From the NCBI GenBank assembly GCA_902621725.1, contig CACNND010000001.1, forward strand, positions 83,726-147,725: DNA of 64,000 bases. Reading direction: 5' to 3'. The position numbers and the translations under genes are program-made. This document shows, piece after piece, positions 40,318 to 62,607 of this stretch (positions are counted from its first letter, which is position 1; each line of letters opens with the position of its first letter). This DNA comes from an uncultured Alphaproteobacteria bacterium (GTDB lineage Bacteria; Pseudomonadota; Alphaproteobacteria; HIMB59; GCA-002718135). The notes below the pieces were generated by a model. That model searched no databases, was not told the origin of the DNA, and saw nothing but the letters and a program-made list of their open reading frames with translations.

Positions 40318-40324
40318 AAATGGA

Positions 40325-41323
40325 TTAGATTAAACTCTTAATTTTTTCTATGAGTTCTGAATTGATATTTCTTGGACCTTTATCTTCTCTATTAGTATGT
40401 CTTCTTTGTCCAGGTAAACGCACGCCGTCTAAGGATGTCATTTGTTCAAAAAATTTTTCGGCATGTTCGTTCCAATTTTTTCCTGCTATTAGTTCTGGAG
40501 ATAAAGCAATAATAAATTCACCTCCTCGTGCTGGGCCTCCATCATTATTATCCTCTTTTTTTGCTTCAAAACTAAATAAATCTCCAACTAGTCCAGCAGA
40601 TAGTAATTCAATCATCATAGCTATAGCGGAACCTTTATAATCACCAAAAGTCAGAAGCACTCCTCCATTTGCTATTTGATTTGGATCATCAGTTTTTTCA
40701 CCATCTTTATTTAATCCTGTTCCAAATGGTACTTTGTGACCATCTCTAGCTGCAACCTGAACCTCACCCATGGCCATTGTAGAAGTTGCCATGTCATAAA
40801 CGACAGGAGTATTATTTTTTCTTGGCCATGCAAATGAAATTGGATTAGTTCCAAATAGTGGTTTTTTTGCACCAGCTGGCGCTACGCTTGGTTTGTATGC
40901 CGTACAAGCAATACCAATTAAATTATTTTCAGCTAACGCTTCAGTCTCATGCCACAAGGCAGCAAAGTGATGAGTATTAGCAATTGTTAACACACCAACT
41001 CCATGTTTATTTGAAGTTTTTATTAATTCAGGTAATCCAACTTTTATTCCTACTGGAGCAAAACCATAATCCCCATCAACACGAATAGCATTTTGTGTAA
41101 GATATTTACTAGTAGGTCGAGAAACAGCATTTACTTTTTTACTTTTTAAAGAAGCTACATACCCTGGAATTCTAAATAAACCATGAGAAACACTTCCATC
41201 TCTCTCTGCATGAGTTACCGTTGTAGCAACACAATCAGCATTTAAATGATCACAGCCATGTTTTGTAAGTGCTTCATAAGCTAATTCATATATTTTTTCT
41301 AATTTTAAAGGAATTGTATTCAT
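40325..41323 (-). CDS. Ldh_2 family (malate/L-lactate/ureidoglycolate-type) dehydrogenase
   Basis: GSVSHGLFRIPGYV and the overall length of about 330 aa are typical of PF02615 enzymes. Confidence 0.8.
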   Translation of the reverse strand: MNTIPLKLEKIYELAYEALTKHGCDHLNADCVATTVTHAERDGSVSHGLFRIPGYVASLKSKKVNAVSRPTSKYLTQNAIRVDGDYGFAPVGIKVGLPELIKTSNKHGVGVLTIANTHHFAALWHETEALAENNLIGIACTAYKPSVAPAGAKKPLFGTNPISFAWPRKNNTPVVYDMATSTMAMGEVQVAARDGHKVPFGTGLNKDGEKTDDPNQIANGGVLLTFGDYKGSAIAMMIELLSAGLVGDLFSFEAKKEDNNDGGPARGGEFIIALSPELIAGKNWNEHAEKFFEQMTSLDGVRLPGQRRHTNREDKGPRNINSELIEKIKSLI

Positions 41324-41356
41324 TTACTTTTCTTTTATATTTAATATTATTAGTGA

Positions 41357-42727
41357 ATGGATAGAGGATTATTAGACAATTTGAAAGAGCTTTTACAAGA
41401 AAGAATATCATTTTCAGAAAGTGTTAGAAATAATCACGCTAAAGGTGAAGATGCCTATGATCCTATCTTACCCAGAGCAGTTTTATTTCCAAAAAATAAT
41501 GAAGAACTTTCAAAAATATTAAAAATTTGTAACGAATTCAAGGTACCAGTAACTGCCTATGGAACAGGAACATCACTAGAAGGTCATGTAGTAGGTAATG
41601 AAGAAGGTTTTACAATATCAATGGAAAATTTTAATAAAATAATTTCAATCAATGAGCAAGATTTTGATTGTCGGGTTCAGGCCAATGTATCTCGTGAACA
41701 ACTTAATGAAACTCTTAAAGATAAAGGAGTATTTTTTCCAATTGATCCTGGTGCTAATGCATCTTTGGGTGGTATGACTGCTTGCTCTGCATCAGGAACA
41801 ATGGCTGTAAGATACGGAACAATGAGAACAACCGTTCTAGGTCTAACTGTAGTTTTAGCAAATGGAGATATAATAAAAACGGGTACAAGAGCAAAAAAAA
41901 CTTCTGCAGGATATAATTTGACCAATCTTTTTGTTGGTTCTGAAGGTACACTAGGAATAATCACTGAGATTCATCTTAGATTATCACCTGTTCCTGAAAG
42001 TATAATGAGTGCCGTATGTCAATTTCCAGATCTTGATTCAGCTGTTTTAACTGCTCAAGAAATTATTCAATACGGTGTACCAATTGCTAGAGTAGAGTTG
42101 TTAAATAAAGATCAGATGGATATTAGTATAAAGTATTCTAAACTAGAGAATTTAGAAAGTTTACCAACACTTTTTTATGAATTTCATGGAAGTGAAATTT
42201 CAAATAAAGAATCTATTGATGTAGTTGAGGAGATATCTAAAAATAATAATGGTAGTGAATTTAAGTGGGCAGCAAACACGGAAGAAAGAAATAAGATTTG
42301 GAAAGCGAGACATAATGTTTATTATTCAGTTAAAGCGCAAGGGGATAATATAAGAGTTTACGCTACTGATGTTTGCGTGCCTATCTCAAATATTGTTGAG
42401 TGTATTAAATTTGCAGAAAACGAACTTCAAGGTACTGGGCTGAAAGCTCCTATGGTTGGTCATGTAGGTGATGGAAATTTTCATGTAACTATTGTCTATG
42501 ATCCTAACAAAGATAATGAATATCAATACATAAGAAAATTTAGTGATAAATTAATTGATAAAGCACTAAAAATGGATGGAACAATAACAGGAGAACACGG
42601 GATAGGTCTTCAAAAAAAGGAATATTTATTAAGACAACACCCAGATAATATTCCTTTAATGAAATTAATTAAGAAAAGTTTTGATCCAAATAATATTTTA
42701 AACCCAGGTAAAATATTTGATATTTAA
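41357..42727 (+). CDS. FAD-linked oxidase (D-lactate dehydrogenase/GlcD-like)
   Basis: FAD_binding_4 pattern (AYGTGTSLEGH) and a C-terminal GEHGIG motif. Confidence 0.85.
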   Translation: MDRGLLDNLKELLQERISFSESVRNNHAKGEDAYDPILPRAVLFPKNNEELSKILKICNEFKVPVTAYGTGTSLEGHVVGNEEGFTISMENFNKIISINEQDFDCRVQANVSREQLNETLKDKGVFFPIDPGANASLGGMTACSASGTMAVRYGTMRTTVLGLTVVLANGDIIKTGTRAKKTSAGYNLTNLFVGSEGTLGIITEIHLRLSPVPESIMSAVCQFPDLDSAVLTAQEIIQYGVPIARVELLNKDQMDISIKYSKLENLESLPTLFYEFHGSEISNKESIDVVEEISKNNNGSEFKWAANTEERNKIWKARHNVYYSVKAQGDNIRVYATDVCVPISNIVECIKFAENELQGTGLKAPMVGHVGDGNFHVTIVYDPNKDNEYQYIRKFSDKLIDKALKMDGTITGEHGIGLQKKEYLLRQHPDNIPLMKLIKKSFDPNNILNPGKIFDI

Positions 42728-42772
42728 AATATAAAAATTAAATTAATTCTAAATTTTTTATTATAATAATAA

Positions 42773-43816
42773 CTACTTTGGATTATTGATATCTTCGTTA
42801 TACGCAAATACTGCTGGGCTTCCGCCTGTATATATAAATATTACATTATCACCTTTTTTAATAATACCTTTTTCCACATAATCTATAAGAGCAGCAAAAC
42901 CTTTGGAAGTATAAACTGGGTCTAAAATTATAGATTCTTTATTTGCTAAAAGCTTCATAGCCTCTATTCCTGCTTTTGTAGTAGCACCATATTTTTCACC
43001 TACATAACTATTATCATGATTGATCATTTCGTGATTAAATTTTACATTTACATCAAGTAACTTAGCTCCTTCATTGCAAATCCTGGCAATATCTTTTTTA
43101 ATATCCATTTCCCAATAAACAGGAGAAATACCTTGAATACGAGTTGGCCAATTTAATATTTTTGCCCCTAACACACATCCTGCTTGTGTCATATTAGCAG
43201 CTGTAACAAATAAATGATCTGCCATAAAATTTTGTTCTTTCATTTGCAAATCAATTTCAGCCATAGCATTTGCATAACTAATTCCAGCAAGAGTTGTATC
43301 CTCTTTTCCAAATCCACCATATATTATTAAAGGTTTGCGACCCTCCTTTATTAACTCTTTATATTTTCTATCTAGATGTTTTGGTATTTCTTCTAAATTT
43401 TCTCCATCAACTACCTCAACGTTTGCTCCCAAGATGTTATATAATAAAAAATTACCTTGCATTAACTTACCTTTTATTCCATGCATCAATACTAAATAAC
43501 TATCTAGATTTAATTTATTAGCAGCAGCTACTGCTTGACGACAAAAGTTTGATTGAGAGGCGGCTCCAGTTAAAATACAATCAAACTCTCCAGATAAAGT
43601 TTTAGCCATTATAAATTCTAGATGCCTTGTTTTATTCCCTCCGAAAGCTAGAGCAGTACAATCATCTCTTTTTATATAAAGATTTATATTTAACTCTTTA
43701 GAAATATTAGGGGCATATTCAAGAACAGTTGGTAGTTGTGCTAAATGAATTTTTGGAATTTTATTTATTCTTGAAACTAATTCTTCAGCAGATAACGGTT
43801 TAAAATTACTATTCAT
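42773..43816 (-). CDS. PLP-dependent ACC deaminase/D-cysteine desulfhydrase family enzyme
   Basis: GGNKTRHLEF (PLP-Lys region of the family), tryptophan-synthase-beta fold. Confidence 0.8.
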   Translation of the reverse strand: MNSNFKPLSAEELVSRINKIPKIHLAQLPTVLEYAPNISKELNINLYIKRDDCTALAFGGNKTRHLEFIMAKTLSGEFDCILTGAASQSNFCRQAVAAANKLNLDSYLVLMHGIKGKLMQGNFLLYNILGANVEVVDGENLEEIPKHLDRKYKELIKEGRKPLIIYGGFGKEDTTLAGISYANAMAEIDLQMKEQNFMADHLFVTAANMTQAGCVLGAKILNWPTRIQGISPVYWEMDIKKDIARICNEGAKLLDVNVKFNHEMINHDNSYVGEKYGATTKAGIEAMKLLANKESIILDPVYTSKGFAALIDYVEKGIIKKGDNVIFIYTGGSPAVFAYNEDINNPK

Positions 43817-43846
43817 TTTACAAATGACATTAAAAATTTTTAAAAA

Positions 43847-45580
43847 TTAATGACTATGTCTTTTTACCTCTGAGCCTCTTTTACCAATCAGAAAATCAAG
43901 ATCTGCACCTTTATCAGCTTGCATAACGTGATCTATATACATTTTTTGATAACCACCAGAAATCTCAGGTAAAATTGGATTATAATTATCTAAACGATTT
44001 TTAATTGTTTCTTCGTCAACTTTTAAGTCCATAGCACCTTTATTGACATCTATTTCTATTAGATCACCATTTTGAACCGCTGCTAAAGGGCCTTTTACTG
44101 CTGCTTCAGGAGCAGTATGAAGGATTACTGTTCCATATGCTGTTCCACTCATTCTAGCATCAGATATCCTAATCATATCCCTTACACCTTTCTTTAAAAG
44201 TTTTTGTGGAAGACGCATATTACCAACTTCTGCCATACCTGGATAACCTTTTGGTCCACAATTTTTCAAAACTAATATAGATTTTTCGTCTACCTCTAAA
44301 TTTGGATCATCAATTTTTTCATGAAATTCTTCTACACTTTCAAAGACAACCGCTTTTCCAATATGTTTCATTAATTCTGGTGATGCAGCAGATGGTTTAA
44401 TTATTGCGCCATTAGGTGCAATGTTTCCTTTAAGAATTTTAATGCCTCCATTTTTTGTTAATGGATTATCAAATTCTTTTATAACTTCATTATTCCAACA
44501 TTTAGCGTTTTTGTTATTTTCACCAATAGTTTTTCCATTTACTGTCAATGCATTCTCATCTAATAATTTTTTTTCAAGTAATCTTTTTATTACAACAGGA
44601 ACTCCACCTGCATAATAAAAATCTTCCATTAAATATTTTCCAGAAGGCTGAAGATTTACAAGTGTCGGAATTCCCTCTCCACACTTATTCCAATCTTCTA
44701 AATCCAAATCTATTTCCATTCTTCCTGAAATAGCTGCTAAATGAATAACAGCATTTGTTGAACCGCCTATAGCGCCATTAACTTTTATTGCATTTTCAAA
44801 TGATTTTTTTGTTACAATTTTTGACATATTTATATTTTCTTTAACCATCTCAACAATTCTTTTTCCTGACATATGAGCTAATGTGTATCTTCTTGAATCA
44901 ACTGCTGGAATTGCTGCGTTTCCAGGAAGAGACATTCCTAATGCTTCCACCATTGAACCCATTGTTGATGCTGTACCCATAGTCATACAATTACCTTTTG
45001 ATCTGCTCATTGAAATTTCTGCATTTATAAAATCTTCTTCTGTAATTACACCTGCGTTTAAATCAGCATCAAGTTTCCAAACTCCTGTTCCAGAACCTAT
45101 AGTTTCTCCCTGATGATGACCATTCAGCATTGGACCGCCTGAAACTCCTATTGTTGGAAGGTCAACACTTGCTGCACCCATCATTAATGAAGGTGTTGTT
45201 TTATCACAACCCATTAATAGTACTACACCGTCTATTGGATTACCCCTTATTGCTTCTTCAACATCCATACTTGCCAAGTTTCTAAACAACATCGCTGTAG
45301 GTCTTAAGTTAGATTCACTTGCTGAAAATACAGGAAATTCAAGTGGGAAACCACCAGCTTCATAAACACCTTTTTTAACAGACTCTGCTATCTCTCTAAA
45401 ATGACCATTACATGGTGTCAGTTCTGACCAAGTATTACAAATTCCAATTACAGGACGTCCATCAAATAGGTGATTGGGATGCCCTTGATTTCTCATCCAG
45501 CCTCTATGAATAAATGTATCTCTTCTATGTGTTTTAGAATTATACCAATTGGAAGATCTAAATTTATTTTTTTTATTCAT
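43847..45580 (-). CDS. IlvD/Edd family dehydratase (sugar-acid dehydratase type)
   Basis: CDKTTPS cluster-ligand motif, 577 aa. The context with a lactonase suggests an aldonate dehydratase rather than biosynthetic IlvD. Confidence 0.85.
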   Translation of the reverse strand: MNKKNKFRSSNWYNSKTHRRDTFIHRGWMRNQGHPNHLFDGRPVIGICNTWSELTPCNGHFREIAESVKKGVYEAGGFPLEFPVFSASESNLRPTAMLFRNLASMDVEEAIRGNPIDGVVLLMGCDKTTPSLMMGAASVDLPTIGVSGGPMLNGHHQGETIGSGTGVWKLDADLNAGVITEEDFINAEISMSRSKGNCMTMGTASTMGSMVEALGMSLPGNAAIPAVDSRRYTLAHMSGKRIVEMVKENINMSKIVTKKSFENAIKVNGAIGGSTNAVIHLAAISGRMEIDLDLEDWNKCGEGIPTLVNLQPSGKYLMEDFYYAGGVPVVIKRLLEKKLLDENALTVNGKTIGENNKNAKCWNNEVIKEFDNPLTKNGGIKILKGNIAPNGAIIKPSAASPELMKHIGKAVVFESVEEFHEKIDDPNLEVDEKSILVLKNCGPKGYPGMAEVGNMRLPQKLLKKGVRDMIRISDARMSGTAYGTVILHTAPEAAVKGPLAAVQNGDLIEIDVNKGAMDLKVDEETIKNRLDNYNPILPEISGGYQKMYIDHVMQADKGADLDFLIGKRGSEVKRHSH

Positions 45581-45612
45581 GAATGAAAGTTTTAGCTAAT
45601 TAAAGTAAAAAA

Positions 45613-46500
45613 TCAAATTTTAAATTTATAATCTTCAACTCCTGGTACATTTACATTTAATGCGAATAAACTGCCATCATATTGATTTTTGCCAGAATTA
45701 TTTGCAGTAGTAATGAATAATGTCTTAAGATCAGTACCACCAAAAACACAATTAGTGACATTTTCTACAGGTAGCTCATAAATTTGATCGACTCTTCCTT
45801 TAGGGTCAATTCTCACTAAACATGATCCACCCCAACGACAATTCCAAATAAAACCATCACTATCAATAGTTGAACCATCTGGAGCTCCTCTATCAAAATC
45901 AAATAAAATTTTTTTATCTGATAAACTGCCTTTGTCTAGATTAAATTTATATTCAAGTAATGATCCTTCAGTTGAGTCAGCAAAATAAAATTTTGTATTA
46001 TCTGGACTCCAAACAAATGTATTAGGTATACCAAGATTTGTTTCAACTATGTTTAATTTATTTTCCGATAAACAATATAAAGTTCCAGATTTAGTATTTA
46101 AAGTCTTTGCACTTCCATCCTGATTAATATTATTTTGCATTGTACCAAACCAGAGCCTTCCTTTTGCATCGGATGCACCGTCGTTTGATCTATTAGTTAA
46201 AATATTTTCTTCTACCTCTTTAATTATTTCATATTTTTTGGTTTGAAAATTAAATTTGTTTACTCCGTTGTTTGAAACTAGAGCAATTTCACTGTTTGAA
46301 ATTGTTGATGATGCTGTTACAAATTCAGGTAATTCAAAAGTTTCTAATTTTTCACTTTGAAAATTTATTCTGAATAAAACTGTTTTTGGTTTTATATCAA
46401 GCCAAAATAAACTTTGATTAATTGAAGACCAAGTTATACCTTCACCTAAACTGTTTTTTACATCTTTATATAATTCAACCTTACTCACCGAAAGGATCAA
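45613..46500 (-). CDS. SMP-30/gluconolactonase/LRE-like lactonase
   Basis: GEGITW, LFWLDI, and six-bladed-propeller-type repeats. Confidence 0.85.
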   Translation of the reverse strand: MILSVSKVELYKDVKNSLGEGITWSSINQSLFWLDIKPKTVLFRINFQSEKLETFELPEFVTASSTISNSEIALVSNNGVNKFNFQTKKYEIIKEVEENILTNRSNDGASDAKGRLWFGTMQNNINQDGSAKTLNTKSGTLYCLSENKLNIVETNLGIPNTFVWSPDNTKFYFADSTEGSLLEYKFNLDKGSLSDKKILFDFDRGAPDGSTIDSDGFIWNCRWGGSCLVRIDPKGRVDQIYELPVENVTNCVFGGTDLKTLFITTANNSGKNQYDGSLFALNVNVPGVEDYKFKI

Positions 46501-46532
46501 TATAATAAAATTTAAAATTTATGAAGATAAGA

Positions 46533-47537
46533 TTAAAGATAATGCGCTTTGTCTTTGATACGAGCCATTACTTCTTTTGTTGCTTCTTCAGATCCATCAT
46601 GAAAAGTACCCATTAGTTTATCTAAAAAACTAGTGTTTCCTCCTGAGTAATTACATTCAAAGTATTTGTGATGAATATAGTGCATATAATCACCTGTGGG
46701 TATTGATACACCATTTTTGAAAGTCATCTTTTCATATCCTGTATGTCCAGGTGTAGGGGCTAGTCCAGCATGAAAAACATGATACATCGCAACAAGAGGG
46801 TGAGAAGGAATAATCCAATGTACTAAAATACCTGAAAAATATAATAGATGCTCTATTGGGTGCATAGACATACCAGACCAAGCACCTGTATTTGTATTAC
46901 GGTGATGAACTTTATGAGCAATTTTATAAAGTGGTGCCCAGTGCAATAGTCTATGAGTTAAATAAAAATGTGCGTCTCTTATAAATGGAACAAGAAAGAA
47001 CATAAAACAACAATATATTGGATAAGCCTCCCAGCTTACATAAGGGATTATTTGATTTGCGAATGCCCAAAATGTAATTACTTCATAAGCTGTCCATAAT
47101 GGGATAGCACTACAAAAAGTATAGAATAGGTTATCTTTAGTCTGATCATTGAATAAAAATGTTGAGTTATTTTTTTCTAAAGGTCGTGGATTATATTTAA
47201 ATGAAGTTCCTTGTGTCTTCAGTCTTAAATGAAAGAAGCCTGTCCAAAGCAAAATAATAAGTGCATTTCTAAAGAATATGTAGGATATCCATCCTATTTC
47301 AAAAGTCTTCATTGTCTCTAAAGAAGGAGTCAAAAAAAGATATGTAGCAACTGTTATCGCTGCAAATACGAAAGTCCATGGGAAAAAAATTCCTGGGAAT
47401 TTAAAAAAATACTTTAAAAATTTTATTGGGTTGAAAAATATATCTTTAGGTGGGTTAATACTTATTGTACCAAATGGTTTCCAATGACCCCGTTTATCTC
47501 TTGTACCAAAATCACTGTCATTTAATTGATTTCCCAT
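46533..47537 (-). CDS. Fatty acid hydroxylase/sterol desaturase family membrane di-iron enzyme
   Basis: His boxes HRLLH, HKVHH and HYIHHKY, with several TM helices. Confidence 0.8.
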   Translation of the reverse strand: MGNQLNDSDFGTRDKRGHWKPFGTISINPPKDIFFNPIKFLKYFFKFPGIFFPWTFVFAAITVATYLFLTPSLETMKTFEIGWISYIFFRNALIILLWTGFFHLRLKTQGTSFKYNPRPLEKNNSTFLFNDQTKDNLFYTFCSAIPLWTAYEVITFWAFANQIIPYVSWEAYPIYCCFMFFLVPFIRDAHFYLTHRLLHWAPLYKIAHKVHHRNTNTGAWSGMSMHPIEHLLYFSGILVHWIIPSHPLVAMYHVFHAGLAPTPGHTGYEKMTFKNGVSIPTGDYMHYIHHKYFECNYSGGNTSFLDKLMGTFHDGSEEATKEVMARIKDKAHYL

Positions 47538-47575
47538 AATGTATTTATAATATATTTTGAGTAAAAAAAAAGAGA

Positions 47576-48592
47576 CTAAATTGTCGTATCTGGAACCTTC
47601 ACATCAATAAAATAATTTTTATCTTTAGATTGCTTAAATATTGCTGGGATTATTGATCTATAAGCAGAAATTATTCCGTTATGAGGTTCTGGCATTTGAT
47701 TTTTAACTATTTTGTGAAATTTTTTTAAATTATGACATGGGATTTTTGGGAAAATGTGATGCTCAATATGATACTCCATATTTGAATACAAAAAACTAAA
47801 AAAAGGATTCATAATAACGGTTCTTGTACTTTTTCTATGGTCTTTAATATTATCAGCTAGTCCAGCATGTTGAGTCATGCCACAAATCATTAATATAGTA
47901 TTTCCATAAAATGGAGGTAAAATTATCATTATGATTGGTAGCCATGATTGTAATAAAACTGAGGATAGAATTACAAGTAACCAAAAACCTAGATATAATC
48001 TGGAACTATTAATAATTTTTTTTATCTCCTTTTCAGGTACAGTAACTTTTACTACAGGAGTGATTATTCCAAATGAATGTTTAATAATTTCAAAATGTGT
48101 AAAATGTCTTATTTTTTGAATATTAATTATTGGACCAAATGGTAAAAAATTTAAAAGAAATCTAATAGGTTCTGTTGGTTTCGGACTATTGTTTTCGTAA
48201 TCATACACTTCGTCATGTGTAAATATTGTGTAAGTGTGATGATGAAAATGACTCCATTTCCATCTAACTGCCTCAAAACCTCCAAGCAAAGAAGTTATAT
48301 GATAAAAAAATTTATTTAACGCTCTTTTTTTAAAATATGTTTCGTGATTTGTTTCATGTTGAATACTAATGATTTTACAATAAAAAATATTTCCATAAAG
48401 TAGAAAAGCAGGAATTGACCATAAAGTGCCCCAACTTACAATGCATAGATATCCACTTAATACTAGGGCAATGACAAATAATGATATATCTATTATGCCT
48501 TTTAAATCAGATCTCTTAGATAGTTCTTTTAAAATTTTCTTATCTATATTTGGCTTGTACCAATTTTTTAAATCTACTTCGCCTGCGAACAT
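47576..48592 (-). CDS. Fatty acid desaturase family (FADS-like) membrane di-iron enzyme, copy B
   Basis: His boxes HETNH, HFHHH and HIEHHIFP. Paralog of 51053..52039. Confidence 0.8.
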   Translation of the reverse strand: MFAGEVDLKNWYKPNIDKKILKELSKRSDLKGIIDISLFVIALVLSGYLCIVSWGTLWSIPAFLLYGNIFYCKIISIQHETNHETYFKKRALNKFFYHITSLLGGFEAVRWKWSHFHHHTYTIFTHDEVYDYENNSPKPTEPIRFLLNFLPFGPIINIQKIRHFTHFEIIKHSFGIITPVVKVTVPEKEIKKIINSSRLYLGFWLLVILSSVLLQSWLPIIMIILPPFYGNTILMICGMTQHAGLADNIKDHRKSTRTVIMNPFFSFLYSNMEYHIEHHIFPKIPCHNLKKFHKIVKNQMPEPHNGIISAYRSIIPAIFKQSKDKNYFIDVKVPDTTI

Positions 48593-48595
48593 TAA

Positions 48596-49423
48596 TCAAA
48601 ATTTTTCTGAAAGTTTTAGGAATTTTTCAAATTCAGCTTCGTCGATGTTTACTGTGATTTTAGGGTCATTAAATTTTTTGTTTACTGTGTCATCGTGAAA
48701 TTCTTTAAAAGCACTAATTCTTTCAGCTTGTAGTTTTGCAAATTCTTTTTTAAAATCTCTATAAATACGTGCATGTCTTGGAATTTTTCCTTGAGTATAC
48801 CCAAGAACATCATTAGCAAATAAATATTGCCCATCACATCCAGAACCACTTCCCATTGAGAGAGTCATGATATCAACTTTTTTTGTAATAATTTCTGCAA
48901 CTTTTGGTGGAACTACTTCGAGTTCAACTCCGATAGCCCCCGCTTCTTGTAACTCAAGAGTATGTTCTAAAATTCTGATGGCTTTATTAGCAGTTTTACC
49001 TTGCGCAATAAATCCTCCAATCCAAGTAGCATTTCCTGGAACTAATCCAACATGACTGTTAATTGGAATGTACTCATCTCTTAATGCTCTAATCCATTTG
49101 TAGCTCCAATTACCACCATAGATTACATCTGCACCAATATCTAAATACTTATGTGATAGTTTCATTGCTTCATACTCAGAAGCTACTCTTACTGCACCTC
49201 CAGATTGCATAAAGCAAGTTGGCGCAGCCTCACGAATTCTCTTAAGTTCATCAAAAGAATTATAAATACCAAATTGTGGAGCATCATGAGAAGTACAAAT
49301 CATATCAATGCCTGCCTCTTCAGCTGCTGCAGCTTCATCAGCATTATGCACAAACATAACACTTAGTTGTCTTTTACCTTTGCATTGCAAATAATCATAA
49401 ACTGTAAGTTTTTTTCTGCTCAT
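48596..49423 (-). CDS. PanB-like (3-methyl-2-oxobutanoate hydroxymethyltransferase family) enzyme, divergent
   Basis: Colinear with PanB (HVGLVPGNATWIGGFIAQGKT vs [21 protein letters not shown]; LEVVP vs LECVP; MGSGSGCDGQYL vs IGAGNVTDGQIL). The GDSLGM segment is not recognisable. Confidence 0.7.
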   Translation of the reverse strand: MSRKKLTVYDYLQCKGKRQLSVMFVHNADEAAAAEEAGIDMICTSHDAPQFGIYNSFDELKRIREAAPTCFMQSGGAVRVASEYEAMKLSHKYLDIGADVIYGGNWSYKWIRALRDEYIPINSHVGLVPGNATWIGGFIAQGKTANKAIRILEHTLELQEAGAIGVELEVVPPKVAEIITKKVDIMTLSMGSGSGCDGQYLFANDVLGYTQGKIPRHARIYRDFKKEFAKLQAERISAFKEFHDDTVNKKFNDPKITVNIDEAEFEKFLKLSEKF

Positions 49424-49441
49424 AAAATCTCCAAAAAATAT

Positions 49442-49759
49442 TTAATCTATTTTAATGAAAATTTTGTCATTATCAACTTTAACTGGATATGTTTTTAAAT
49501 CCTCACACGCTGGTGGGCTTAAAGCTTCGCCAGATTTAATATTAAAAATTCCTTGATGCATTGGACATTCAATTTCATCATCCATAACCAGGCCATCTTC
49601 AAGATGTACTGCCTCGTGTGTACAAATTCCATCAGTAGCATAAAAACCATCTGCTAATCTATACACGCAAAATGTTTTATCTTGATGATCAAATCTTATG
49701 AGATCCTCTTCTTCAATACTATCTGTAGACCCAACTTCAATCCAATTTTCTTCAGACAT
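49442..49759 (-). CDS. Rieske [2Fe-2S] ferredoxin
   Basis: CTHE...H and CPMHQG (CxH...CxxH) in a 105-aa soluble protein. Confidence 0.85.
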   Translation of the reverse strand: MSEENWIEVGSTDSIEEEDLIRFDHQDKTFCVYRLADGFYATDGICTHEAVHLEDGLVMDDEIECPMHQGIFNIKSGEALSPPACEDLKTYPVKVDNDKIFIKID

Positions 49760-49811
49760 AGATTGTATATAATATCTATTTTATGAAAATAAATACAAAA
49801 TAATTAATTTA

Positions 49812-51047
49812 TTATTTTTGTATAAGTTTATTTAATTTTTGATTTTGATCTGAAAGAATTTGTTTATCTACAATGGTATTTTTCTCAGTTAATTTAGAAG
49901 TTATTCTAATGTCACGACCAATTTTTCCTGCAATTCCTAGACCACATGCACCTCTTATTATTTTATCTTTTAGAAAAAAATAAATTACACCATTATTAAT
50001 CTCATTTCCTCTTTCAATGATTTCATCATAATCATCACAAATACCAGTCAGTTGGAGATTCAAATTAAATTGATCAGACCACATCCAAGGAATTGAGGTA
50101 TATTCTGTTTTTACTCCAGCAATATTTTTTCCAGCACATATTCCATGATTTTGTGCATGTTGATAAGACTCAAGTCTCATATATCTTTCATATAATGGAT
50201 GATAAAAATTAGATACGTCACCAGCTGCATAAACATCTTTAATAGAAGTTTCACAAAATTGATTAGTAACTATACCATTATCAAGCTTTAAATTTGTATT
50301 TTCAAATAACTTTACAGATGGGTTTGAGCCTATACCTGCAATTACAAAATCTGTTTCTATTAAAGAATTATCATTTAATAAAATTTCATAGATGCCATTT
50401 TTTTTAGTTATTTTATCTATTTGTTTATTTAATATTATTTCATTTCCTTGTTCTATATGAGTGTTTTGAACCAAATCAGCAATTTGTTTGGGTATAATTC
50501 TTCCCATAAGTTGATTGCCAATTTCGATAACAGTAACTTTCTTTTGAAGCTGAGATAAAGATGAAGCAATTTCTAAGCCAATGAAACCACCGCCAATAAT
50601 AGTTATTTTATTTTTATTTTTATTTGCAACTATTTCTTTAATTATTTTGGCTTCTTCTAAATTTCTTAGATAATAAATATCATTGTTTAAATTATTATCT
50701 AAACTAAGTTTTTTATTTTCAGAACCTGTTGAAATGAGCAAAATATCATAAGAATAAACATTATCGTTTTTTGCAACAAGTTTTTTATTTTCAAAATCAA
50801 CTTTATTAATTGATATATTTTCAAAATCTATGTTTTCATTTTTTAGTACATGACTAGAATGAAAATAAAGATCTTCTTCATTTTTTTTATCTAACAAAAA
50901 ATCTTTAGATAAAGGAGGTCTTTCATAAGGTAATAAATTTTCTTCACCTAAAATTTTAATATTTGATTCAGAATCATTTTTTCTAATCTCTCTAGCAGCA
51001 TAAATTCCGGCTTGACCACCGCCTAAAATTATAATGTTATTTTTCAC
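49812..51047 (-). CDS. FAD-dependent ferredoxin-NAD(P)+ reductase (pyridine nucleotide-disulfide oxidoreductase family)
   Basis: Two Rossmann GxGxxG motifs (ILGGGQAG; IIGGGFIG). The length is typical of ferredoxin/rubredoxin reductases. Confidence 0.85.
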   Translation of the reverse strand: MKNNIIILGGGQAGIYAAREIRKNDSESNIKILGEENLLPYERPPLSKDFLLDKKNEEDLYFHSSHVLKNENIDFENISINKVDFENKKLVAKNDNVYSYDILLISTGSENKKLSLDNNLNNDIYYLRNLEEAKIIKEIVANKNKNKITIIGGGFIGLEIASSLSQLQKKVTVIEIGNQLMGRIIPKQIADLVQNTHIEQGNEIILNKQIDKITKKNGIYEILLNDNSLIETDFVIAGIGSNPSVKLFENTNLKLDNGIVTNQFCETSIKDVYAAGDVSNFYHPLYERYMRLESYQHAQNHGICAGKNIAGVKTEYTSIPWMWSDQFNLNLQLTGICDDYDEIIERGNEINNGVIYFFLKDKIIRGACGLGIAGKIGRDIRITSKLTEKNTIVDKQILSDQNQKLNKLIQK

Positions 51048-51052
51048 TTAGT

Positions 51053-52039
51053 TTAAGCGTTACCGGGAATAGATAATGGGATTTGATAATCTGGATTTTT
51101 TGCTTGTTTTATGAGTGCTGGAATAATTTCTTTATAAGCCCCAAGAAGACCTTTTCTGGCAGATGGTAATTGATCTTTAATTATAGCATGAAGTTTAGGT
51201 AAATTATGTGAGGGAACTTGAGGGAACATATGGTGCTCAACATGATATTCCATATGCCAATATAAAAAACTTAAAACTGGATTTAAATATACTGTTCTGG
51301 TTGTATACCTGTGATCTCTTTTATCTTCTCTAAGTCCAGCGTGCTGAGTAAGACCCATTAGCATGACGAGTGTCTTTCCATAAAAATTAGGTAATAAAAC
51401 ATATAGAACTGGAAGCCAGCTTTGAAAGTATACTGAAGAAGCAATACTTATAATCCAAATAGAGAGATGACTCCAAGCGGATAATCTACATTTCCATCTT
51501 TCGTTTTCAGGGATACAAACTTTCATTACATCTGTAGTCACACCAAATGCATGTTTTATAGTTTCCCATTGAAGAGAATTTTTAAAAAAAATAAAACCAG
51601 AGAATGGAATGTAGTGAGAGAAAAACACAATTAAATCAGTTGGTTTTTTTACATGAATTTCAAAATCCACAGGATCATTGAATTGGGTATAAGTATGATG
51701 ATGATAATGAGAATATCTCCATCTTATAGGCTCGAAATTATCCATGAAACTTGCAATGTAATAAAAGAAATCATTCCAGAATTTTGATTTAAAAGCTGTT
51801 CTGTGACCAGTTTCATGCCAAATAGCATCACTACATCCCCATATATTTCCATATATTAGAAAAAATAATAAAGACCACCAAGTGCCCCATGTGACATATG
51901 CAAGATACCCAAAAAGAAATAGAGATGAAAAATAAATTATCATATGCTTAAAACCCTGCCAATCAGATTTCTTGCATAACTTCTTAAATTCTTTTTTATC
52001 TATATTTGCTCGATACCATTTACCTAAATCTACTTCCAT
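51053..52039 (-). CDS. Fatty acid desaturase family (FADS-like) membrane di-iron enzyme, copy A
   Basis: His boxes HETGH, HYHHH and HVEHHMFP. First gene of the co-directional operon. Confidence 0.8.
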   Translation of the reverse strand: MEVDLGKWYRANIDKKEFKKLCKKSDWQGFKHMIIYFSSLFLFGYLAYVTWGTWWSLLFFLIYGNIWGCSDAIWHETGHRTAFKSKFWNDFFYYIASFMDNFEPIRWRYSHYHHHTYTQFNDPVDFEIHVKKPTDLIVFFSHYIPFSGFIFFKNSLQWETIKHAFGVTTDVMKVCIPENERWKCRLSAWSHLSIWIISIASSVYFQSWLPVLYVLLPNFYGKTLVMLMGLTQHAGLREDKRDHRYTTRTVYLNPVLSFLYWHMEYHVEHHMFPQVPSHNLPKLHAIIKDQLPSARKGLLGAYKEIIPALIKQAKNPDYQIPLSIPGNA

Positions 52040-52229
52040 AATTAAAAAATAGCACTTTTTAATAACCTTATAAATATAAAAATTACTATAAATTAGGAAT
52101 TAAGTGCGACTATTTTATCTAGCTAACGTAACTCGAATTTAATTTGTAATAAACCCTTTAATACTTTAATTTAATTGTAATATTGATTTATTTACTTATA
52201 AATTGAGTCATAAATTATTTGGAGGAATT

Positions 52230-53210
52230 ATGAAAAAAATCTTTGCAATCATTGCTCTATTTTTTGCTTTTGCATCTACTTCAGCAGTAGCAAAAAATGA
52301 TTATAGCTGTGATAAGAAATTTATATTTTTCCCAGGCGGACCTGAAGGTGGTCCATTTGGAACTATTGTTTATAATGGTGCAGTAGCTGCTGCTGAACAT
52401 ACTGGTTGTGACGTAGACTATTACTGGTCACAATGGAACTCAGAAATCATGATTAAACAATTCAAAGAGGCTGTTGCTTTACAGCCTGATGGAATTGCAA
52501 TCTATGGTTTTCCAGGTGACGCTGCAATGAGACCTATCATTCAAGAAGCTAGAGAAATGGGAATAGTTATTACTACTATGAACACGCCTCTTCCTGACCT
52601 TGAGTCAGAGTATAAAACTGAAGGATTTGGTTATGCAGGCGCAGATTTATTTGATGCTGGATTTAATCTAGGTAAAAAAGCTGTTGAAGTTTGTGGTCTA
52701 CAAGCTGGAGACAAAGCTTTTATCTGGGGTCTTGCAAGTATGCCAAATAGAGGAGAAAGAACTAAAGGTGCAATAGCTGGTGTTGAAGCAGCAGGTGTTG
52801 AAGTAGTTTATCAAGAAATTCCTGATAACGTAAACTCTGATGCATCACAGGGAACTCCTATGTATGTTGCAACATACAGTGCAAATCCTGATATTAAATT
52901 AGCTATTACTGATCATGGTGGATTAACTGCAAGTTTACCAACATATATGAAGGCTGCAGGTCATGGTACTGAAGAAGTATGTGGCGCTGGATTTGATTTA
53001 TCAGCTCCAATTGTTGATGGAATTAATTCAGGTTACATTGATGTAGTAATTGATCAACAACCATTTATCCAAGGATATATGCCAATCGTTCAATTATTCC
53101 TAAGTACAAAGTATGGAATGGCTGGATTAGCTATGGATACTGGTGCTGCATTTGTTACAGCTGATAACGTAGATGCTGTTGCTCCATTAGCAGCAGTACA
53201 AATCAGATAA
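52230..53210 (+). CDS. Sugar-type ABC transporter periplasmic substrate-binding protein (PBP type I)
   Basis: Signal peptide MKKIFAIIALFFAFASTSAVA preceded by a GGAGGA SD. RbsB/FrcB-like fold pattern. The track start at 52203 (TTG) is rejected. Confidence 0.85.
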   Translation: MKKIFAIIALFFAFASTSAVAKNDYSCDKKFIFFPGGPEGGPFGTIVYNGAVAAAEHTGCDVDYYWSQWNSEIMIKQFKEAVALQPDGIAIYGFPGDAAMRPIIQEAREMGIVITTMNTPLPDLESEYKTEGFGYAGADLFDAGFNLGKKAVEVCGLQAGDKAFIWGLASMPNRGERTKGAIAGVEAAGVEVVYQEIPDNVNSDASQGTPMYVATYSANPDIKLAITDHGGLTASLPTYMKAAGHGTEEVCGAGFDLSAPIVDGINSGYIDVVIDQQPFIQGYMPIVQLFLSTKYGMAGLAMDTGAAFVTADNVDAVAPLAAVQIR

Positions 53211-53222
53211 ATTAAATTTTAT

Positions 53223-53255
53223 AACCTGCCTTAATTTAAGGCAGGTTAAATTTTT
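53223..53255 (+). terminator. Intra-operon hairpin (attenuator or partial terminator) after the binding-protein gene
   Basis: AACCTGCC (53223-53230) pairs with GGCAGGTT (53240-53247) around a 9-nt loop. It is followed by AAATTTTT immediately before the ATPase ATG. Confidence 0.5.
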
Positions 53256-54023
53256 ATGGCAGAAGAACTCTTAAAATTAGAAAATATTTATAAAAACTTT
53301 GGAAATGTCAAAGTTTTAAAAGATGTAAATATCAAAATAAATAAAGGTGAAGTAGTAGCTTTAATTGGTGATAATGGTGCTGGCAAATCAACACTTATAA
53401 AAGTTATAACTGGAGTTCACAGCCCAAACTCAGGAAAAGTTTTTTTTAAAGAAAAAGAAGTTCAAATTAAATCAGTCGCCCAATCAAGAAAAATGGGGAT
53501 TGAAGCTGTATATCAAGAGAGAGCACTTTGTGATCAACAAGAATTGTTTAGAAATATTTTTGCAGGAAGAGAAATTACAAACTCATTTGGTTTTTTAGAT
53601 ATCAAAAAACAAAGAAAAGAAGCAGAAAAAATTTTACGAGATTATATAGGGTTTACTTCTAAGGCTATAACTGTGGACTCACCAGTAATGGGTCTATCAG
53701 GCGGAGAAAAACAAGGCGTTGCTTTTGGTAGATCCTTATACTTTAATTCTGATTTGATTGTATTAGACGAACCTACTATGGGTTTATCAATTCAAGAAAC
53801 AGAAAAAGTACTTAACTTTGTAAAGGGTTTAAAAAATGAAAATAAATCAGCTATTTTTATCGATCACAATATAATACACGTTTACGGTGCTGCAGATAGG
53901 TTTATCATTTTAGATAGAGGAGAAGTTGTTGGAGAGTTTAACAAAGAAGATATTTCAAGGGAAGAGCTTGTTAAAAAAATGATCCAACTTCATGAGTCAG
54001 GAAAAATTAAGGTAGAAAATTAA
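53256..54023 (+). CDS. ABC transporter ATP-binding protein (single NBD)
   Basis: Walker A GDNGAGKST, signature LSGGEKQ, Walker B LIVLDEPT. Confidence 0.9.
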   Translation: MAEELLKLENIYKNFGNVKVLKDVNIKINKGEVVALIGDNGAGKSTLIKVITGVHSPNSGKVFFKEKEVQIKSVAQSRKMGIEAVYQERALCDQQELFRNIFAGREITNSFGFLDIKKQRKEAEKILRDYIGFTSKAITVDSPVMGLSGGEKQGVAFGRSLYFNSDLIVLDEPTMGLSIQETEKVLNFVKGLKNENKSAIFIDHNIIHVYGAADRFIILDRGEVVGEFNKEDISREELVKKMIQLHESGKIKVEN

Positions 54024-55001
54024 ATGAGTAGTTTATTAAATAGTTATTTTGTAAAAACACACAAACTTGAAATAAGTATTACAATAATTGCCATAGTGCT
54101 TTTCTTAATTTACTTCTTGGGTGCACCACATGTATTTACAAGATTTCCAATTTACAGAGCTTTCATGCAATCAATGCCTTTTTTTGGCATTATTGCTATA
54201 TCAGCAACATTTGTTGTTACACTTGGTGAAATAGATCTGTCATTCCCATCTATAGTTGGAATTACATCTCTCATATTTGGAATCATAATGACATCAACAG
54301 ATGGTAATTTTTTTATAGCATTTATCTTGGCGACTTCACTTGGAATGTTTGCTGGATTAGTAAATGGATTACTTGTTACTAAAATTGGTATACCTTCAAT
54401 AGTTGCAACTATAGGTACTTTATTTTTTTGGCGTGGATTAGTTAATGTTATTTCCCAAGGTAGTGGTATTGCAATCGTCGATGTGGCAGATGGAACCTGG
54501 CATCATATGATATTTGTAGAAAAATTATTTGGGAAAATTCCAATGCAATTTATTTGGTTCATTGTATTAACAGGTTTGATGCAGTGGGTTTATCGTTACC
54601 ATAAATTTGGAAATCACATCCACTTTGTAGGTGACAATAAAGCAAGTGCTCAAATGATGGGAATTAATGTTGATAATGTAAAAATTATTGCTTTTGTTCA
54701 ATTAGGTTTTTTCTCCGCTTTAGCGGGAATTTTTACAATGTATGAAATGTTATACTTCTGGCCTACACAAGGTGAGGGCTTAATGTTAACGACATTAGCA
54801 GCTGTCTTTGTTGGTGGGACCTCAGTATTTGGTGGTAAGGGTACTATTTTTGGAACCTTTATTGGAGTATTAATTATAGGTTCATTGGAATCAGGTATAG
54901 TTGCTTTAGGATTATCTGGTTTTTATGTAAAATTTATCAATGGGCTCATGATTACAGTTGCCGTGACAGTTTACGCTCTTATACAAAGAAGAAAAAATTA
55001 A
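54024..55001 (+). CDS. ABC transporter permease (ribose/fructose-type, BPD_transp_2)
   Basis: 325 aa, about 9-10 TM helices. Follows the ATPase gene with no gap. Confidence 0.85.
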   Translation: MSSLLNSYFVKTHKLEISITIIAIVLFLIYFLGAPHVFTRFPIYRAFMQSMPFFGIIAISATFVVTLGEIDLSFPSIVGITSLIFGIIMTSTDGNFFIAFILATSLGMFAGLVNGLLVTKIGIPSIVATIGTLFFWRGLVNVISQGSGIAIVDVADGTWHHMIFVEKLFGKIPMQFIWFIVLTGLMQWVYRYHKFGNHIHFVGDNKASAQMMGINVDNVKIIAFVQLGFFSALAGIFTMYEMLYFWPTQGEGLMLTTLAAVFVGGTSVFGGKGTIFGTFIGVLIIGSLESGIVALGLSGFYVKFINGLMITVAVTVYALIQRRKN

Positions 55002-55735
55002 TAAGTAGCTCGACCTCCACTTAAATCAAAAGTTGAGCCTGTGGTATAAGAATTTTCTTCAGAAGACATCCATGCAACTAAAGAGGCTAATTCTTCAACT
55101 AAAACAAATCTATTTCTAGGAATTTTTGATAACATATAATCAATATGTTCTTGCGTAATTTGATCAAAAATCCGTGTCTTAGCAGGTGCAGGGGTAACAC
55201 AATTCACTGCTATATTATTCTCAGCTAACTCTTTTCCTAAAGATTTAGTAAGTGCAATAACTCCTGCTTTTGCTGCACTATAAGGCATTGCATTAGGATT
55301 ACCTTCCTTACCAGCTATCGAGGAAATATTTACGATACGTCCATAATTATGTTTGATAAAATGAGGTACTATAGTTTTACAGCAATAAAATACTCCGCTT
55401 AGATCTATATCGATAACTTTTTGCCATTCCTCAAGTGGATAATCCCAAGTCTTAAAGTTTGGTCCAGCTATTCCTGCATTATTTACTAAAATATCAATTT
55501 TACTTTCATATGTAAGACTTTCAGCAAATGCATTCTCTACATTTTTATAATTTGACACATCAACTTCGATTTTTTGGGTATTTTTTAAATCAACTTTATT
55601 TAAATATTCTTGATCATTGTCCCATATTAATACTCTTGCACCTGATTCTAAAAATCTTTTTGTAATTGCTAAGCCAAAACCTTGTGCTCCACCCGTTACA
55701 ATCGCTACTCTATTTTCTAAATTAATTTTATTCAT
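54998..55735 (-). CDS. Short-chain dehydrogenase/reductase
   Basis: TGGAQGFG, NNAG, YSAAKAG catalytic motif. Confidence 0.85.
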   Translation of the reverse strand: MNKINLENRVAIVTGGAQGFGLAITKRFLESGARVLIWDNDQEYLNKVDLKNTQKIEVDVSNYKNVENAFAESLTYESKIDILVNNAGIAGPNFKTWDYPLEEWQKVIDIDLSGVFYCCKTIVPHFIKHNYGRIVNISSIAGKEGNPNAMPYSAAKAGVIALTKSLGKELAENNIAVNCVTPAPAKTRIFDQITQEHIDYMLSKIPRNRFVLVEELASLVAWMSSEENSYTTGSTFDLSGGRATY

Positions 55736-60411: not shown

Positions 60412-60501
60412 TATTAAACTCCATATAAAATTATAAACACATAACTACCCTTTAGTTATGCATTAAATCATGCGTAGCTATGGAAATTAATTACTAAGAT
60501 C

Positions 60502-60552: not shown

Positions 60553-60568
60553 ATTAATAACTTTGCAT

Positions 60569-60619: not shown

Positions 60620-60688
60620 TGAATTGAGTTATAGCTATAATTTGAAAACTATCAAGAAATAGTATTAGATTTAGTTAATAAAATCTGA

Positions 60689-62591: not shown

Positions 62592-62607
62592 ATTTATAAC
62601 TTTGCAT

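Follow-up and report, generated by a model that had tools for sequence, protein, structure and literature searches.

What does a Rieske electron chain with three membrane oxygenases do among genes for soluble sugar-acid enzymes? The question is raised by six consecutive genes (positions 46533-52039) in a 64,000-nucleotide stretch of DNA from an uncultured alphaproteobacterium (GenBank assembly GCA_902621725.1, contig CACNND010000001.1, positions 83,726 to 147,725), which is called the window below and from whose first letter positions are counted. A preliminary description of these genes had held that the combination matches no characterized pathway. The genes of the window were assigned with the curated models of Pfam and NCBIfam/TIGRFAM, and bit scores are given with the curated cut-off. 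By all testable defining features the locus is, as judged from its sequence, a MocDEF-type three-component system; it appears to be an expanded membrane monooxygenase of this type within a sugar-utilization module of a SAR11-type (Pelagibacteraceae) bacterium. The pairing of a Rieske ferredoxin with an FADS-family oxygenase is already known as MocDEF. New in the window are two MocD paralogs and an FA_hydroxylase-family oxygenase with one Rieske/reductase pair, beside a sugar transporter, a lactonase, a dehydratase and a short-chain dehydrogenase/reductase (SDR); the substrate and the chemistry of a PanB-like protein in this locus are what we infer in addition.

The oxygenase operon

The six genes are listed in the order of transcription.

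51053-52039, minus strand: FADS-A, MocD-type membrane di-iron oxygenase, 328 aa, encoded first in the operon (Pfam FA_desaturase, 1.2e-32)
49812-51047, minus strand: reductase, MocF-type FAD-dependent NAD(P)H:ferredoxin reductase, 411 aa (Pyr_redox_2, 2.8e-59; Reductase_C, 1.7e-12)
49442-49759, minus strand: Rieske, MocE-family Rieske [2Fe-2S] ferredoxin, 105 aa (Pfam Rieske, 8e-17)
48596-49423, minus strand: PanB-like protein, 275 aa (Pantoate_transf, 7.8e-38, in the C-terminal two-thirds only, residues 82-251)
47576-48592, minus strand: FADS-B, second MocD-type membrane di-iron oxygenase, 338 aa (FA_desaturase, 5.7e-33)
46533-47537, minus strand: FAH, FA_hydroxylase/sterol-desaturase-family membrane oxygenase, 334 aa (PF04116, 1.4e-19, 71.2 bits versus 31)

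The preliminary description of six consecutive minus-strand genes with gaps of 3 to 52 nt was accurate in coordinates and spacing. The intergenic gaps are 5 nt between FADS-A and the reductase gene, 52 nt between this and the Rieske gene, and then 18, 3 and 38 nt. The G+C content of the window is about 30%. All His-box and Rieske motifs quoted earlier are present: HETGH, HYHHH and HVEHH in FADS-A, HETNH, HFHHH and HIEHH in FADS-B, HRLLH, HKVHH and HYIHHKY at residues 195, 208 and 286 of FAH, and CTH...CPMH in the ferredoxin. Profile searches placed the proteins in the families that had been named for them (FA_desaturase, FA_hydroxylase, Rieske and Pyr_redox_2), and one operon does hold three oxygenases of membrane di-iron families together with one Rieske ferredoxin dedicated to them and one FAD reductase.

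Several hydrophobic spans were seen in the hydropathy profiles of all three oxygenases, and none comparable in the soluble partners. The AlphaFold2 model of FADS-A had a predicted local distance difference test score (pLDDT) of 88.9 and a predicted template modeling score (pTM) of 0.87. Its nearest solved folds were FADS-type membrane subunits (TM 0.61), and the AlkB-AlkG complex was matched with a probability of 1.00. The modeled fold is consistent with an integral-membrane di-iron monooxygenase. A sequence search of the PDB with FADS-A and FAH gave no match even at E = 1. Among the curated DesA, DesB, CrtR and GntB models the best scores of the FADS proteins were 45.3 bits versus 380 for GntB and 37.0 versus 500 for DesB. 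With scores of at most 45 bits against cut-offs of 380-500, clustering with characterized lipid desaturases or carotenoid enzymes, which had been named, together with a lack of neighborhood conservation, as what would speak against a new system, was not observed.

Correspondence with the MocDEF cassette

MocDEF is defined by genetics as the O-demethylase of 3-O-methyl-scyllo-inosamine (work of Bahar 1998 that PMC10107442, PMC5789663 and PMC13434037 cite). The window shares with it an FADS-family membrane oxygenase, a Rieske ferredoxin of the MocE family and an FAD reductase that carries Reductase_C, all in one operon, the same PanB-like gene next in the operon, and an adjoining Peripla_BP_4 ATP-binding cassette (ABC) transporter. 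The earlier statement that a Rieske chain feeding FADS-like proteins matches no characterized pathway did not hold, since this architecture is that of MocDEF in rhizopine catabolism, the ferredoxin passes the MocE model and FADS-A is 40-44% identical to rhizobial MocD. Homology and gene order therefore make the system an elaborated form of a kind that is known but biochemically uncharacterized.

FADS-A shared 42.8% identity over 98% of its length with MocD of the moc locus of Sinorhizobium meliloti T073, and 40.5% with a Rhizobium etli protein that carries the annotation MocD. When plasmids were searched with FADS-A by tblastn, the result was 293 records, nearly all of them rhizobial, at 40-44% identity over 98% of the protein. 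FADS-B was 47% identical to FADS-A and 35-37% identical to rhizobial MocD. The three His boxes and a QH motif are invariant in the FADS family, in marine and rhizobial members alike. In a neighbor-joining tree of 118 homologs the rhizobial/Rhodobacterales MocD clade adjoins a large marine radiation, inside which FADS-A and FADS-B form distinct paralog clades.

The window ferredoxin scored 138.5 bits versus 136.15 on TIGR02377 (MocE_fam_FeS, "MocE family 2Fe-2S type ferredoxin"), a marginal pass, and was 62% identical to R. etli MocEa and 55% identical to the S. meliloti protein. The reductase has two GxGxxG motifs and 31% identity to MocF of R. etli and S. meliloti; its best NCBIfam matches were the Rieske-ferredoxin reductases HcaD and AndAa, both under the equivalog cut-offs.

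Rhizobia, Rhodobacterales and SAR11 share the gene order oxygenase, reductase, Rieske, PanB-like. Genes annotated in R. etli CIAT 652 as mocD, mocEa, mocFa and "probable ketopantoate hydroxymethyltransferase" lie downstream of a LacI regulator, and the Rieske, PanB-like and reductase proteins of the window are 62%, 44% and 31% identical to those of this cassette. The same cassette is present on pSymB of S. meliloti, in Rhizobium sp. Kim5, where a CUT2 ABC transporter lies next to it, and in the marine Rhodobacterales genus Aestuarium, where it adjoins an ABC transporter with a "rhizopine-binding protein" and iolG/iolC/iolD. Pairwise comparison with the window proteins gave identities of 40-43% (oxygenase), 55-62% (Rieske ferredoxin), 42-45% (PanB-like protein) and 31% (reductase). 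In the literature, mocDEF clusters adjoin LacI/FixV regulators in several rhizobia (PMC3538637) and xylA2 in woody-host Pseudomonas syringae (PMC5132102), and their role outside rhizopine catabolism has been called unresolved (PMC13434037). One SAR11 relative carries an FADS and PanB-like pair followed by a glyoxalase-fold gene and an XylA2-type isomerase (L006, 11435-13245), which mirrors the mocDEF-xylA2 arrangement of P. syringae (PMC5132102).

Genuine rhizopine loci were found on pSymA of S. meliloti T073 and HM006. They comprise an IolE/MocC-like gene, MocA-type dehydrogenases, a Peripla_BP_4 substrate-binding protein (SBP), MocR, MocD, MocE and MocF, and MocR passes its equivalog cut-off with 763.9 bits versus 650. 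In both (L095, 12280-18424, and L096) mocF is followed by a PanB-like gene and then by purU, the gene of formyl-THF deformylase (TIGR00655, 327 bits versus 286), the coding regions overlapping or nearly abutting. No mention of this continuation of the rhizopine locus by PanB-like and purU genes was found in the accessible moc literature.

The window differs from these loci in several respects. It contains no MocR or LacI regulator, no mocA or mocC, no iol genes and no purU, and it has two MocD paralogs plus an FA_hydroxylase oxygenase, hence two superfamilies, with the genes of a single electron chain. Its downstream genes correspond to a route from aldose through lactone and aldonate to a keto-deoxy acid, not to inositol catabolism, its host is a streamlined marine Pelagibacteraceae genome, and the system is very abundant in the environment. 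Between 42 and 58 kb of the window no GntR/aminotransferase regulator, GFO_IDH or IolE-like gene was found, all of which the T073 locus has. A rhizopine (moc) locus proper was ruled out, because MocR, MocA and MocC are missing and the SBP scores far under the rhizopine cut-off.

The PanB-like protein

The fourth gene of the operon is publicly annotated as 3-methyl-2-oxobutanoate hydroxymethyltransferase. Its product scored well under both curated PanB cut-offs (TIGR00222, 102 versus 207.55; PRK00311, 118 versus 272), and aligned with the solved PanB structures of Escherichia coli (1M3U) and Mycobacterium tuberculosis (1OY0) over residues 91-223 only, at 22-29% identity. In the alignment to E. 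coli PanB, the family retains H136, E181 and the loops GGF...GK and GxG...D, whereas D45, S46 and D84 are replaced (D84 by Gly or Ala), a Tyr that hardly varies stands in the place of K112, and E114 has been deleted. When 1.84 billion representatives were searched exhaustively with the PanB-like protein, 68 clusters were obtained at E <= 1e-30. Among the full-length matches, five canonical PanBs (31-33% identity) read D-S-D-K-E-H-E at these positions, and about 45 PanB-like representatives read x-x-(G/A)-Y-gap-H-E. As the canonical PanBs keep all seven residues, the positions are a conserved PanB signature, five-sevenths of which is lost in the PanB-like protein. The lost residues D45, S46, D84, K112 and E114 are taken to be the Mg2+/alpha-keto-acid site of the 1M3U and 1OY0 structures; a literature search on PanB active-site residues found nothing. 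PanB takes its one-carbon (C1) unit from 5,10-methylene-tetrahydrofolate (5,10-methylene-THF). Compared with the PanB of 1M3U and 1OY0, the PanB-like protein also has an extra C-terminal helical extension and a catabolic oxygenase context. On this sequence evidence it is not a ketopantoate hydroxymethyltransferase. One match in the library of representatives (P0362, 542 aa) contains two PanB-like stretches and is an apparent tandem fusion.

The gene is not a bystander. A PanB-like gene was present in every MocD-clade cassette examined, genuine moc loci included, where it is followed by purU, and rhizobia, Rhodobacterales and SAR11 all have it linked to MocD-type genes. It forms the conserved fourth part of the MocDEF cassette and is a partner of the oxygenases. 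In a SAR11 relative (71% identity) the PanB-like and FADS genes lie back to back, with no local Rieske ferredoxin or reductase. Two otherwise syntenic loci have a second PanB-like paralog (44-45% identity) between FADS-B and FAH (L022, 14936-15751; L024, 14460-15281), and a third locus, L028, has two FADS and PanB-like pairs. A generic formaldehyde scavenger would need no paralogs within the operon, which argues that the PanB-like protein acts on a substrate-specific intermediate.

The FA_hydroxylase-family oxygenase

FAH had no NCBIfam subfamily match, and a lookup of its exact sequence returned no record. Homologs were found with 52% identity in Sinorhizobium and 58% in a Chloroflexi genome. 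The Sinorhizobium homolog has a Rieske ferredoxin of its own next to it, a strong member of the MocE family (180.8 bits), together with a reductase, a LacI regulator and a sugar SBP, and another genome likewise combines FAH, Rieske, LacI and a CUT2 ABC transporter. Next to the Chloroflexi homolog are a CUT1 sugar transporter, a GFO/IDH/MocA dehydrogenase and an IolD-like thiamine pyrophosphate enzyme. On a Tara contig the PanB-like gene stands between FADS and FAH and sugar-catabolism genes adjoin. As FAH homologs have their own MocE-type Rieske ferredoxin in sugar loci, these ferredoxins therefore serve two unrelated membrane di-iron superfamilies, both of them in sugar or cyclitol contexts.

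In a 3.1-Mb genome an FA_hydroxylase homolog (about 50% identity; L097, 8001-10135) is convergent with folD, the gene of methylene-THF dehydrogenase/cyclohydrolase, which may be a C1 link or a coincidence.

Conservation and variants of the locus

With one genome scanned per species, at least 591 relatives were found, of which the best 78 loci were examined. About 14 species-level genomes, some with an FADS-A of only 77-82% identity, and two long metagenome contigs have the full block of transporter, six genes, lactonase and dehydratase, with the genes in the same order. The conservation of the neighborhood over these genomes and metagenomic contigs indicates that the arrangement is more than chance. 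The ABC transporter was 98-100% conserved in the relatives and always divergent from FADS-A. The closest relatives of the window are single-cell genomes and metagenome-assembled genomes labeled Pelagibacteraceae or "uncultured Alphaproteobacteria"; with the G+C content, this marks the host as a SAR11-type bacterium. The genes are very common in marine metagenomes, where single 90%-identity clusters comprised 800-2,200 member sequences.

Of the best 78 loci, the number with a given gene within 10 kb was 28 for a PanB-like gene, 16 for a Rieske gene, 15 for a reductase, 14 for FAH and 32-35 for the ABC transporter. Some loci lacked FADS-B and FAH (L021, L023), one consisted of the PanB-like gene and FADS-A only (L025), and L080 and L028 had the same parts in shuffled order. 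Other SAR11-type loci held up to three paralogs together with PhyH, L-rhamnose mutarotase (RhaM), AP_endonuc_2, GFO/IDH/MocA and IlvD-like genes.

In Candidatus Pelagibacter ubique HTCC8051 (L056, 9155-15103) a MocD-family oxygenase with 53% identity to FADS-A directly follows proteorhodopsin. The genes that come next encode a plant-type Fer2 ferredoxin, a TrxR-like flavoprotein, a glutathione S-transferase and two GFO/IDH/MocA dehydrogenases.

Neighboring genes and sugar context

The genes on both sides of the operon are the following.

45613-46500, minus strand: lactonase, SMP-30/gluconolactonase-family sugar lactonase, 32 nt downstream of FAH (Pfam SGL, 8.7e-69)
43847-45580, minus strand: IlvD/Edd-family sugar-acid dehydratase, L-arabinonate-dehydratase type (PRK06131, 913.8 bits versus 539)
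42773-43816, minus strand: pyridoxal phosphate (PLP) enzyme of the D-cysteine desulfhydrase/ACC deaminase/CuyA family, gap 30 nt (CuyA, 274 bits versus 450)
52040-52202, no strand: divergent intergenic region, 163 bp, AT-rich, presumed shared promoter region (read from the sequence)
52203-55001, plus strand: CUT2 sugar ABC transporter, with SBP 52203-53210, ATPase 53256-54023 and permease 54024-55001 (Peripla_BP_4, 2.3e-30)
54998-55735, minus strand: SDR dehydrogenase, candidate sugar 1-dehydrogenase (just under subfamily cut-offs)

Three further co-directional genes, for the lactonase, the IlvD-family dehydratase and the CuyA-like PLP enzyme, follow the six with gaps of 30-32 nt, and the run therefore extends over 42773-52039. 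On the other side the CUT2 transporter diverges from the oxygenase operon across the 163-bp region. The soluble sugar and sugar-acid context noted earlier, as opposed to a lipid context, was thus borne out. A scan for promoters and terminators between 42 and 56.5 kb gave counts equal to the expectation from shuffled sequence, an Rfam scan gave no match in or near the cluster and matched only glutamine riboswitches at 60-63 kb, and no regulator gene was found in the cluster by the list of open reading frames (ORFs) and profile scans.

The dehydratase scored 834.9 bits versus 882 on the L-arabinonate dehydratase equivalog, and this closeness hints at an arabino- or galacto-configured sugar. The SDR reached 194.8 bits versus 215 for glucose 1-dehydrogenase and 212.6 versus 222 for the FabG subfamily. 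It is kept next to the transporter in relatives, and in L101 it directly follows the dehydratase. The lactonase is syntenic in L016-L020, L100 and L101, and the dehydratase is syntenic in relatives. The PLP enzyme is present in close relatives (86-89% identity) and replaced by other genes in L100 and L101; its membership in the module is doubtful. Further along, positions 34303-38217 encode a zinc-dependent alcohol dehydrogenase, a D-arabinitol-4-dehydrogenase-like protein (402 bits versus 600) and the xylulokinase XylB (524 versus 380). With these carbohydrate and polyol genes the oxygenase cluster therefore lies within a larger sugar-utilization island.

Proposed pathway and alternative explanations

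We give slightly better than an even chance to a pathway in which an imported methylated sugar or cyclitol is oxidatively O-demethylated, the C1 unit is captured by the PanB-like protein in a folate-linked reaction and the sugar is catabolized oxidatively. By its context, the CUT2 transporter would import the methylated sugar or cyclitol. Electrons would then pass from NAD(P)H through the FAD reductase and the MocE-family Rieske ferredoxin to the di-iron centers of FADS-A, FADS-B and FAH; the identity of these components is established, and the path between them would be that of MocDEF and AlkB-type systems. On the precedent of MocDEF genetics, the oxygenases would hydroxylate the O-methyl group to a hemiacetal, R-O-CH2OH, and the three may be split between different positions or different substrates. 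The PanB-like protein, with its PanB scaffold and retained catalytic Glu and His, may next move the hydroxymethyl unit to THF, giving 5,10-methylene-THF and no free formaldehyde. This role as a folate-linked C1 (hydroxymethyl) transferase is put forward as a hypothesis because of the PanB ancestry of the protein, the loss of the enolate-stabilizing site, the presence of purU in genuine moc loci and the duplication together with the oxygenases. Finally, the gene content suggests that the SDR would oxidize the aldose to the lactone, the SMP-30 lactonase would open it and the IlvD-family enzyme would dehydrate the product to a 2-keto-3-deoxy acid, which would feed into central metabolism. In sum, both the C1 unit and the sugar skeleton would be recovered from methylated carbohydrates. 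A broader proposition is possible but doubtful, namely that MocD-type FADS and FA_hydroxylase proteins, of two unrelated superfamilies, are widespread, unrecognized carbohydrate O-demethylases on MocE-type Rieske ferredoxins, each paired with a PanB-derived enzyme in which the keto-acid/Mg2+ site has given way to a new activity, the direct transfer of the nascent hydroxymethyl unit of the sugar hemiacetal to THF.

Several points weigh against O-demethylation with folate-linked capture. Since formaldehyde hemiacetals break down by themselves, the chemistry does not call for a dedicated C1-capturing enzyme. No PanB-family enzyme is known to capture C1 units from hemiacetals, and the oxygenase family is biochemically uncharacterized in all its members. 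The linkage to purU was confined to the two genuine rhizopine loci and was seen in neither the LacI-type nor the marine cassettes; purU was accordingly downgraded as general evidence of folate coupling. The classical Pelagibacter clade, including the cultured HTCC8051, has no PanB-like gene and has a plant-type Fer2 ferredoxin instead, so the PanB-like protein is not obligatory for the oxygenase family. An AlphaFold model of the PanB-like protein, built from a shallow alignment of sequences at least 84% identical, reached a pLDDT of 56, too poor for a look at the binding site or for a fold search. As to the substrate, the window SBP scored 82.5 bits versus 420 on the rhizopine SBP model NF052284. 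The Rieske score exceeds the MocE cut-off by 2 bits only, and it is from operon structure that one Rieske/reductase pair would feed all three oxygenases. The role of MocDEF itself as a demethylase rests on genetics and a model, as cited in PMC13434037, and activity of the window system as an O-demethylase of a methylated cyclitol or sugar would follow from this genetic precedent by analogy.

The main rival, which we regard as unlikely, is hydroxylation of a C-methyl group, as in a 6-deoxy sugar (fucose, rhamnose) or a C-methyl cyclitol (laminitol, mytilitol), followed by oxidation of the neighboring carbon and a PanB-type retro-aldol cleavage in which the PanB-like protein passes the C1 unit to THF. 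AlkB/XylM-type relatives hydroxylate terminal methyl groups and the FADS-A fold matches AlkB, the reverse of PanB chemistry is cleavage of a C-CH2OH next to a carbonyl, and duplication of the PanB-like gene with the oxygenases fits a substrate-specific C-C lyase; one locus (L035) has three paralogs adjoining L-rhamnose mutarotase. The PanB-like protein, however, is without the Mg2+ and alpha-keto-acid ligands that stabilize the enolate in PanB-type aldol chemistry. Moreover, genetics has defined a single substrate for the family, which is an O-methyl ether (Bahar 1998 in PMC13434037), and a PanB-like gene is present in that very locus. That the genes form an enzymatic system unrelated to any characterized pathway, as the preliminary description proposed, has become very improbable. 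It is true that no member has been characterized biochemically and that three oxygenases and a PanB-like protein beside sugar-acid enzymes were not found described in the literature, but the homology and common gene order with MocDEF cassettes, a genuine rhizopine locus among them, and the score above the curated MocE cut-off connect the locus with a known system.

Two further explanations treat part of the cluster as coincidental. Modification of membrane lipids, by desaturation or hydroxylation of acyl chains, hopanoids or carotenoids with the sugar genes as unrelated neighbors, is hardly credible. No lipid genes were seen in any of about 100 loci examined, and sugar ABC transporters, LacI/MocR regulators and inositol or sugar catabolic genes recur as neighbors across phyla. 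Although the Pfam families are named for lipid enzymes and DesA, DesB and CrtR were weakly matched, the lipid equivalog scores were all 37 bits or less versus 475-500, and it is in classical Pelagibacter that the adjoining proteorhodopsin would favor a lipid role. We attach almost no weight to the idea that the ferredoxin and reductase come from a separate soluble Rieske oxygenase system, with the PanB-like gene as a housekeeping panB clustered by coincidence. Both proteins resemble HcaC/HcaD and AndAb/AndAa and the public annotation of the PanB-like gene would agree, but all Hca and And scores are under the cut-offs whereas that of MocE is exceeded, and no ORF for a Rieske oxygenase alpha subunit (Rieske plus mononuclear iron domain) was found in 36-58 kb. 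In addition, the PanB-like protein fails both PanB cut-offs and is without five of the seven signature residues, and many lineages have the same set of four genes together, with the order shuffled.

Comparison with other systems

The AlkB-AlkG-AlkT and XylMA systems are likewise membrane di-iron His-box methyl hydroxylases with a small iron protein and an NAD(P)H reductase, and the AlkB-AlkG structure is a significant fold match of the FADS-A model. Their carrier is a rubredoxin or a plant-type ferredoxin domain and their substrates are hydrophobic hydrocarbons, whereas the window has a Rieske ferredoxin and water-soluble carbohydrates are proposed; sequence similarity between the two was undetectable by phmmer. 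For FAH, a mechanistic precedent by shared Pfam membership is offered by AGMO/TMEM195, which cleaves an ether by hydroxylating the carbon next to the oxygen, and by the sterol C4-methyl oxidases SMO/ERG25, which oxidize methyl groups for removal. These enzymes differ in being eukaryotic, acting on lipids and having tetrahydrobiopterin or cytochrome b5 as electron donor. What is proposed for the PanB-like protein with purU follows a logic like that of sarcosine/dimethylglycine oxidases with purU/folD, of LigM and of DmdA, in which a methyl C1 unit is passed to THF and purU regenerates THF. This is analogy, not homology, as the folate-binding domains of those modules are of the GcvT type, unrelated to PanB.

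SAR11 is the most abundant heterotroph of the ocean and known for C1 oxidation, and methylated sugars are recognized as a part of algal polysaccharides and of dissolved organic matter in the sea that is hard to degrade. A cytochrome P450 of marine Bacteroidetes with a ferredoxin and ferredoxin reductase demethylates 6-O-methyl-D-galactose and releases formaldehyde, and it is the only characterized carbohydrate demethylase to date (PMC6292453). It too represents three-component, NAD(P)H-dependent O-demethylation in marine carbohydrate catabolism, a functional analogy with what is proposed for the window; it differs as a soluble heme P450 with no PanB-like partner, from another phylum, against a membrane di-iron system in the window. 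A literature search for sterol-desaturase-type sugar demethylases found only this P450 work (PMC6292453). Searches for a characterized pinitol or methyl-inositol demethylase in rhizobia, and for a relevant paper combining FADS, Rieske, PanB and inositol, found none.

The interest of the locus lies not in the Rieske-FADS pairing, which is old, but in a biochemically untouched family, its great abundance in SAR11 and a plausible explanation of how methylated sugars are used. If true, a membrane di-iron route in SAR11 would be a second, mechanistically distinct solution to demethylation, and the degradation of methylated sugars from marine dissolved organic matter would be tied to energy-yielding C1 oxidation. 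Citations of MocDEF go back 25 years with no biochemical work on it, and the PanB-like fourth part and the parallel FA_hydroxylase version are testable targets. The cluster also exposes a systematically misannotated PanB-like protein with a testable new function. If this is true, the "panB" annotated in many Pelagibacteraceae genomes would be unrelated to pantothenate synthesis. The label can yield false predictions of pantothenate prototrophy in streamlined genomes.

Other features of the window

The region 39124-43816 encodes a beta-lactamase-fold esterase (AcmB-like, 160 bits versus 550), an Ldh_2-family dehydrogenase (L-sulfolactate-dehydrogenase-like, 181 versus 500), a GlcD-like FAD oxidase and the CuyA-like PLP enzyme. 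As a group these genes point to metabolism of hydroxy acids or sulfonates. Their conservation alongside the oxygenase block is absent in L100 and partial in L101, and an extension of the pathway to sulfonates or amino-sugar acids through the CuyA-like, Ldh_2 and GlcD-like proteins was rejected as part of the core because of this lack of synteny.

Two tandem pairs of glutamine riboswitch aptamers (RF01739, 55-61 bits) lie at 60500-60621 and 62539-62660 on the minus strand, each pair upstream of an ammonium-transporter gene (59125-60411 and 61163-62479).

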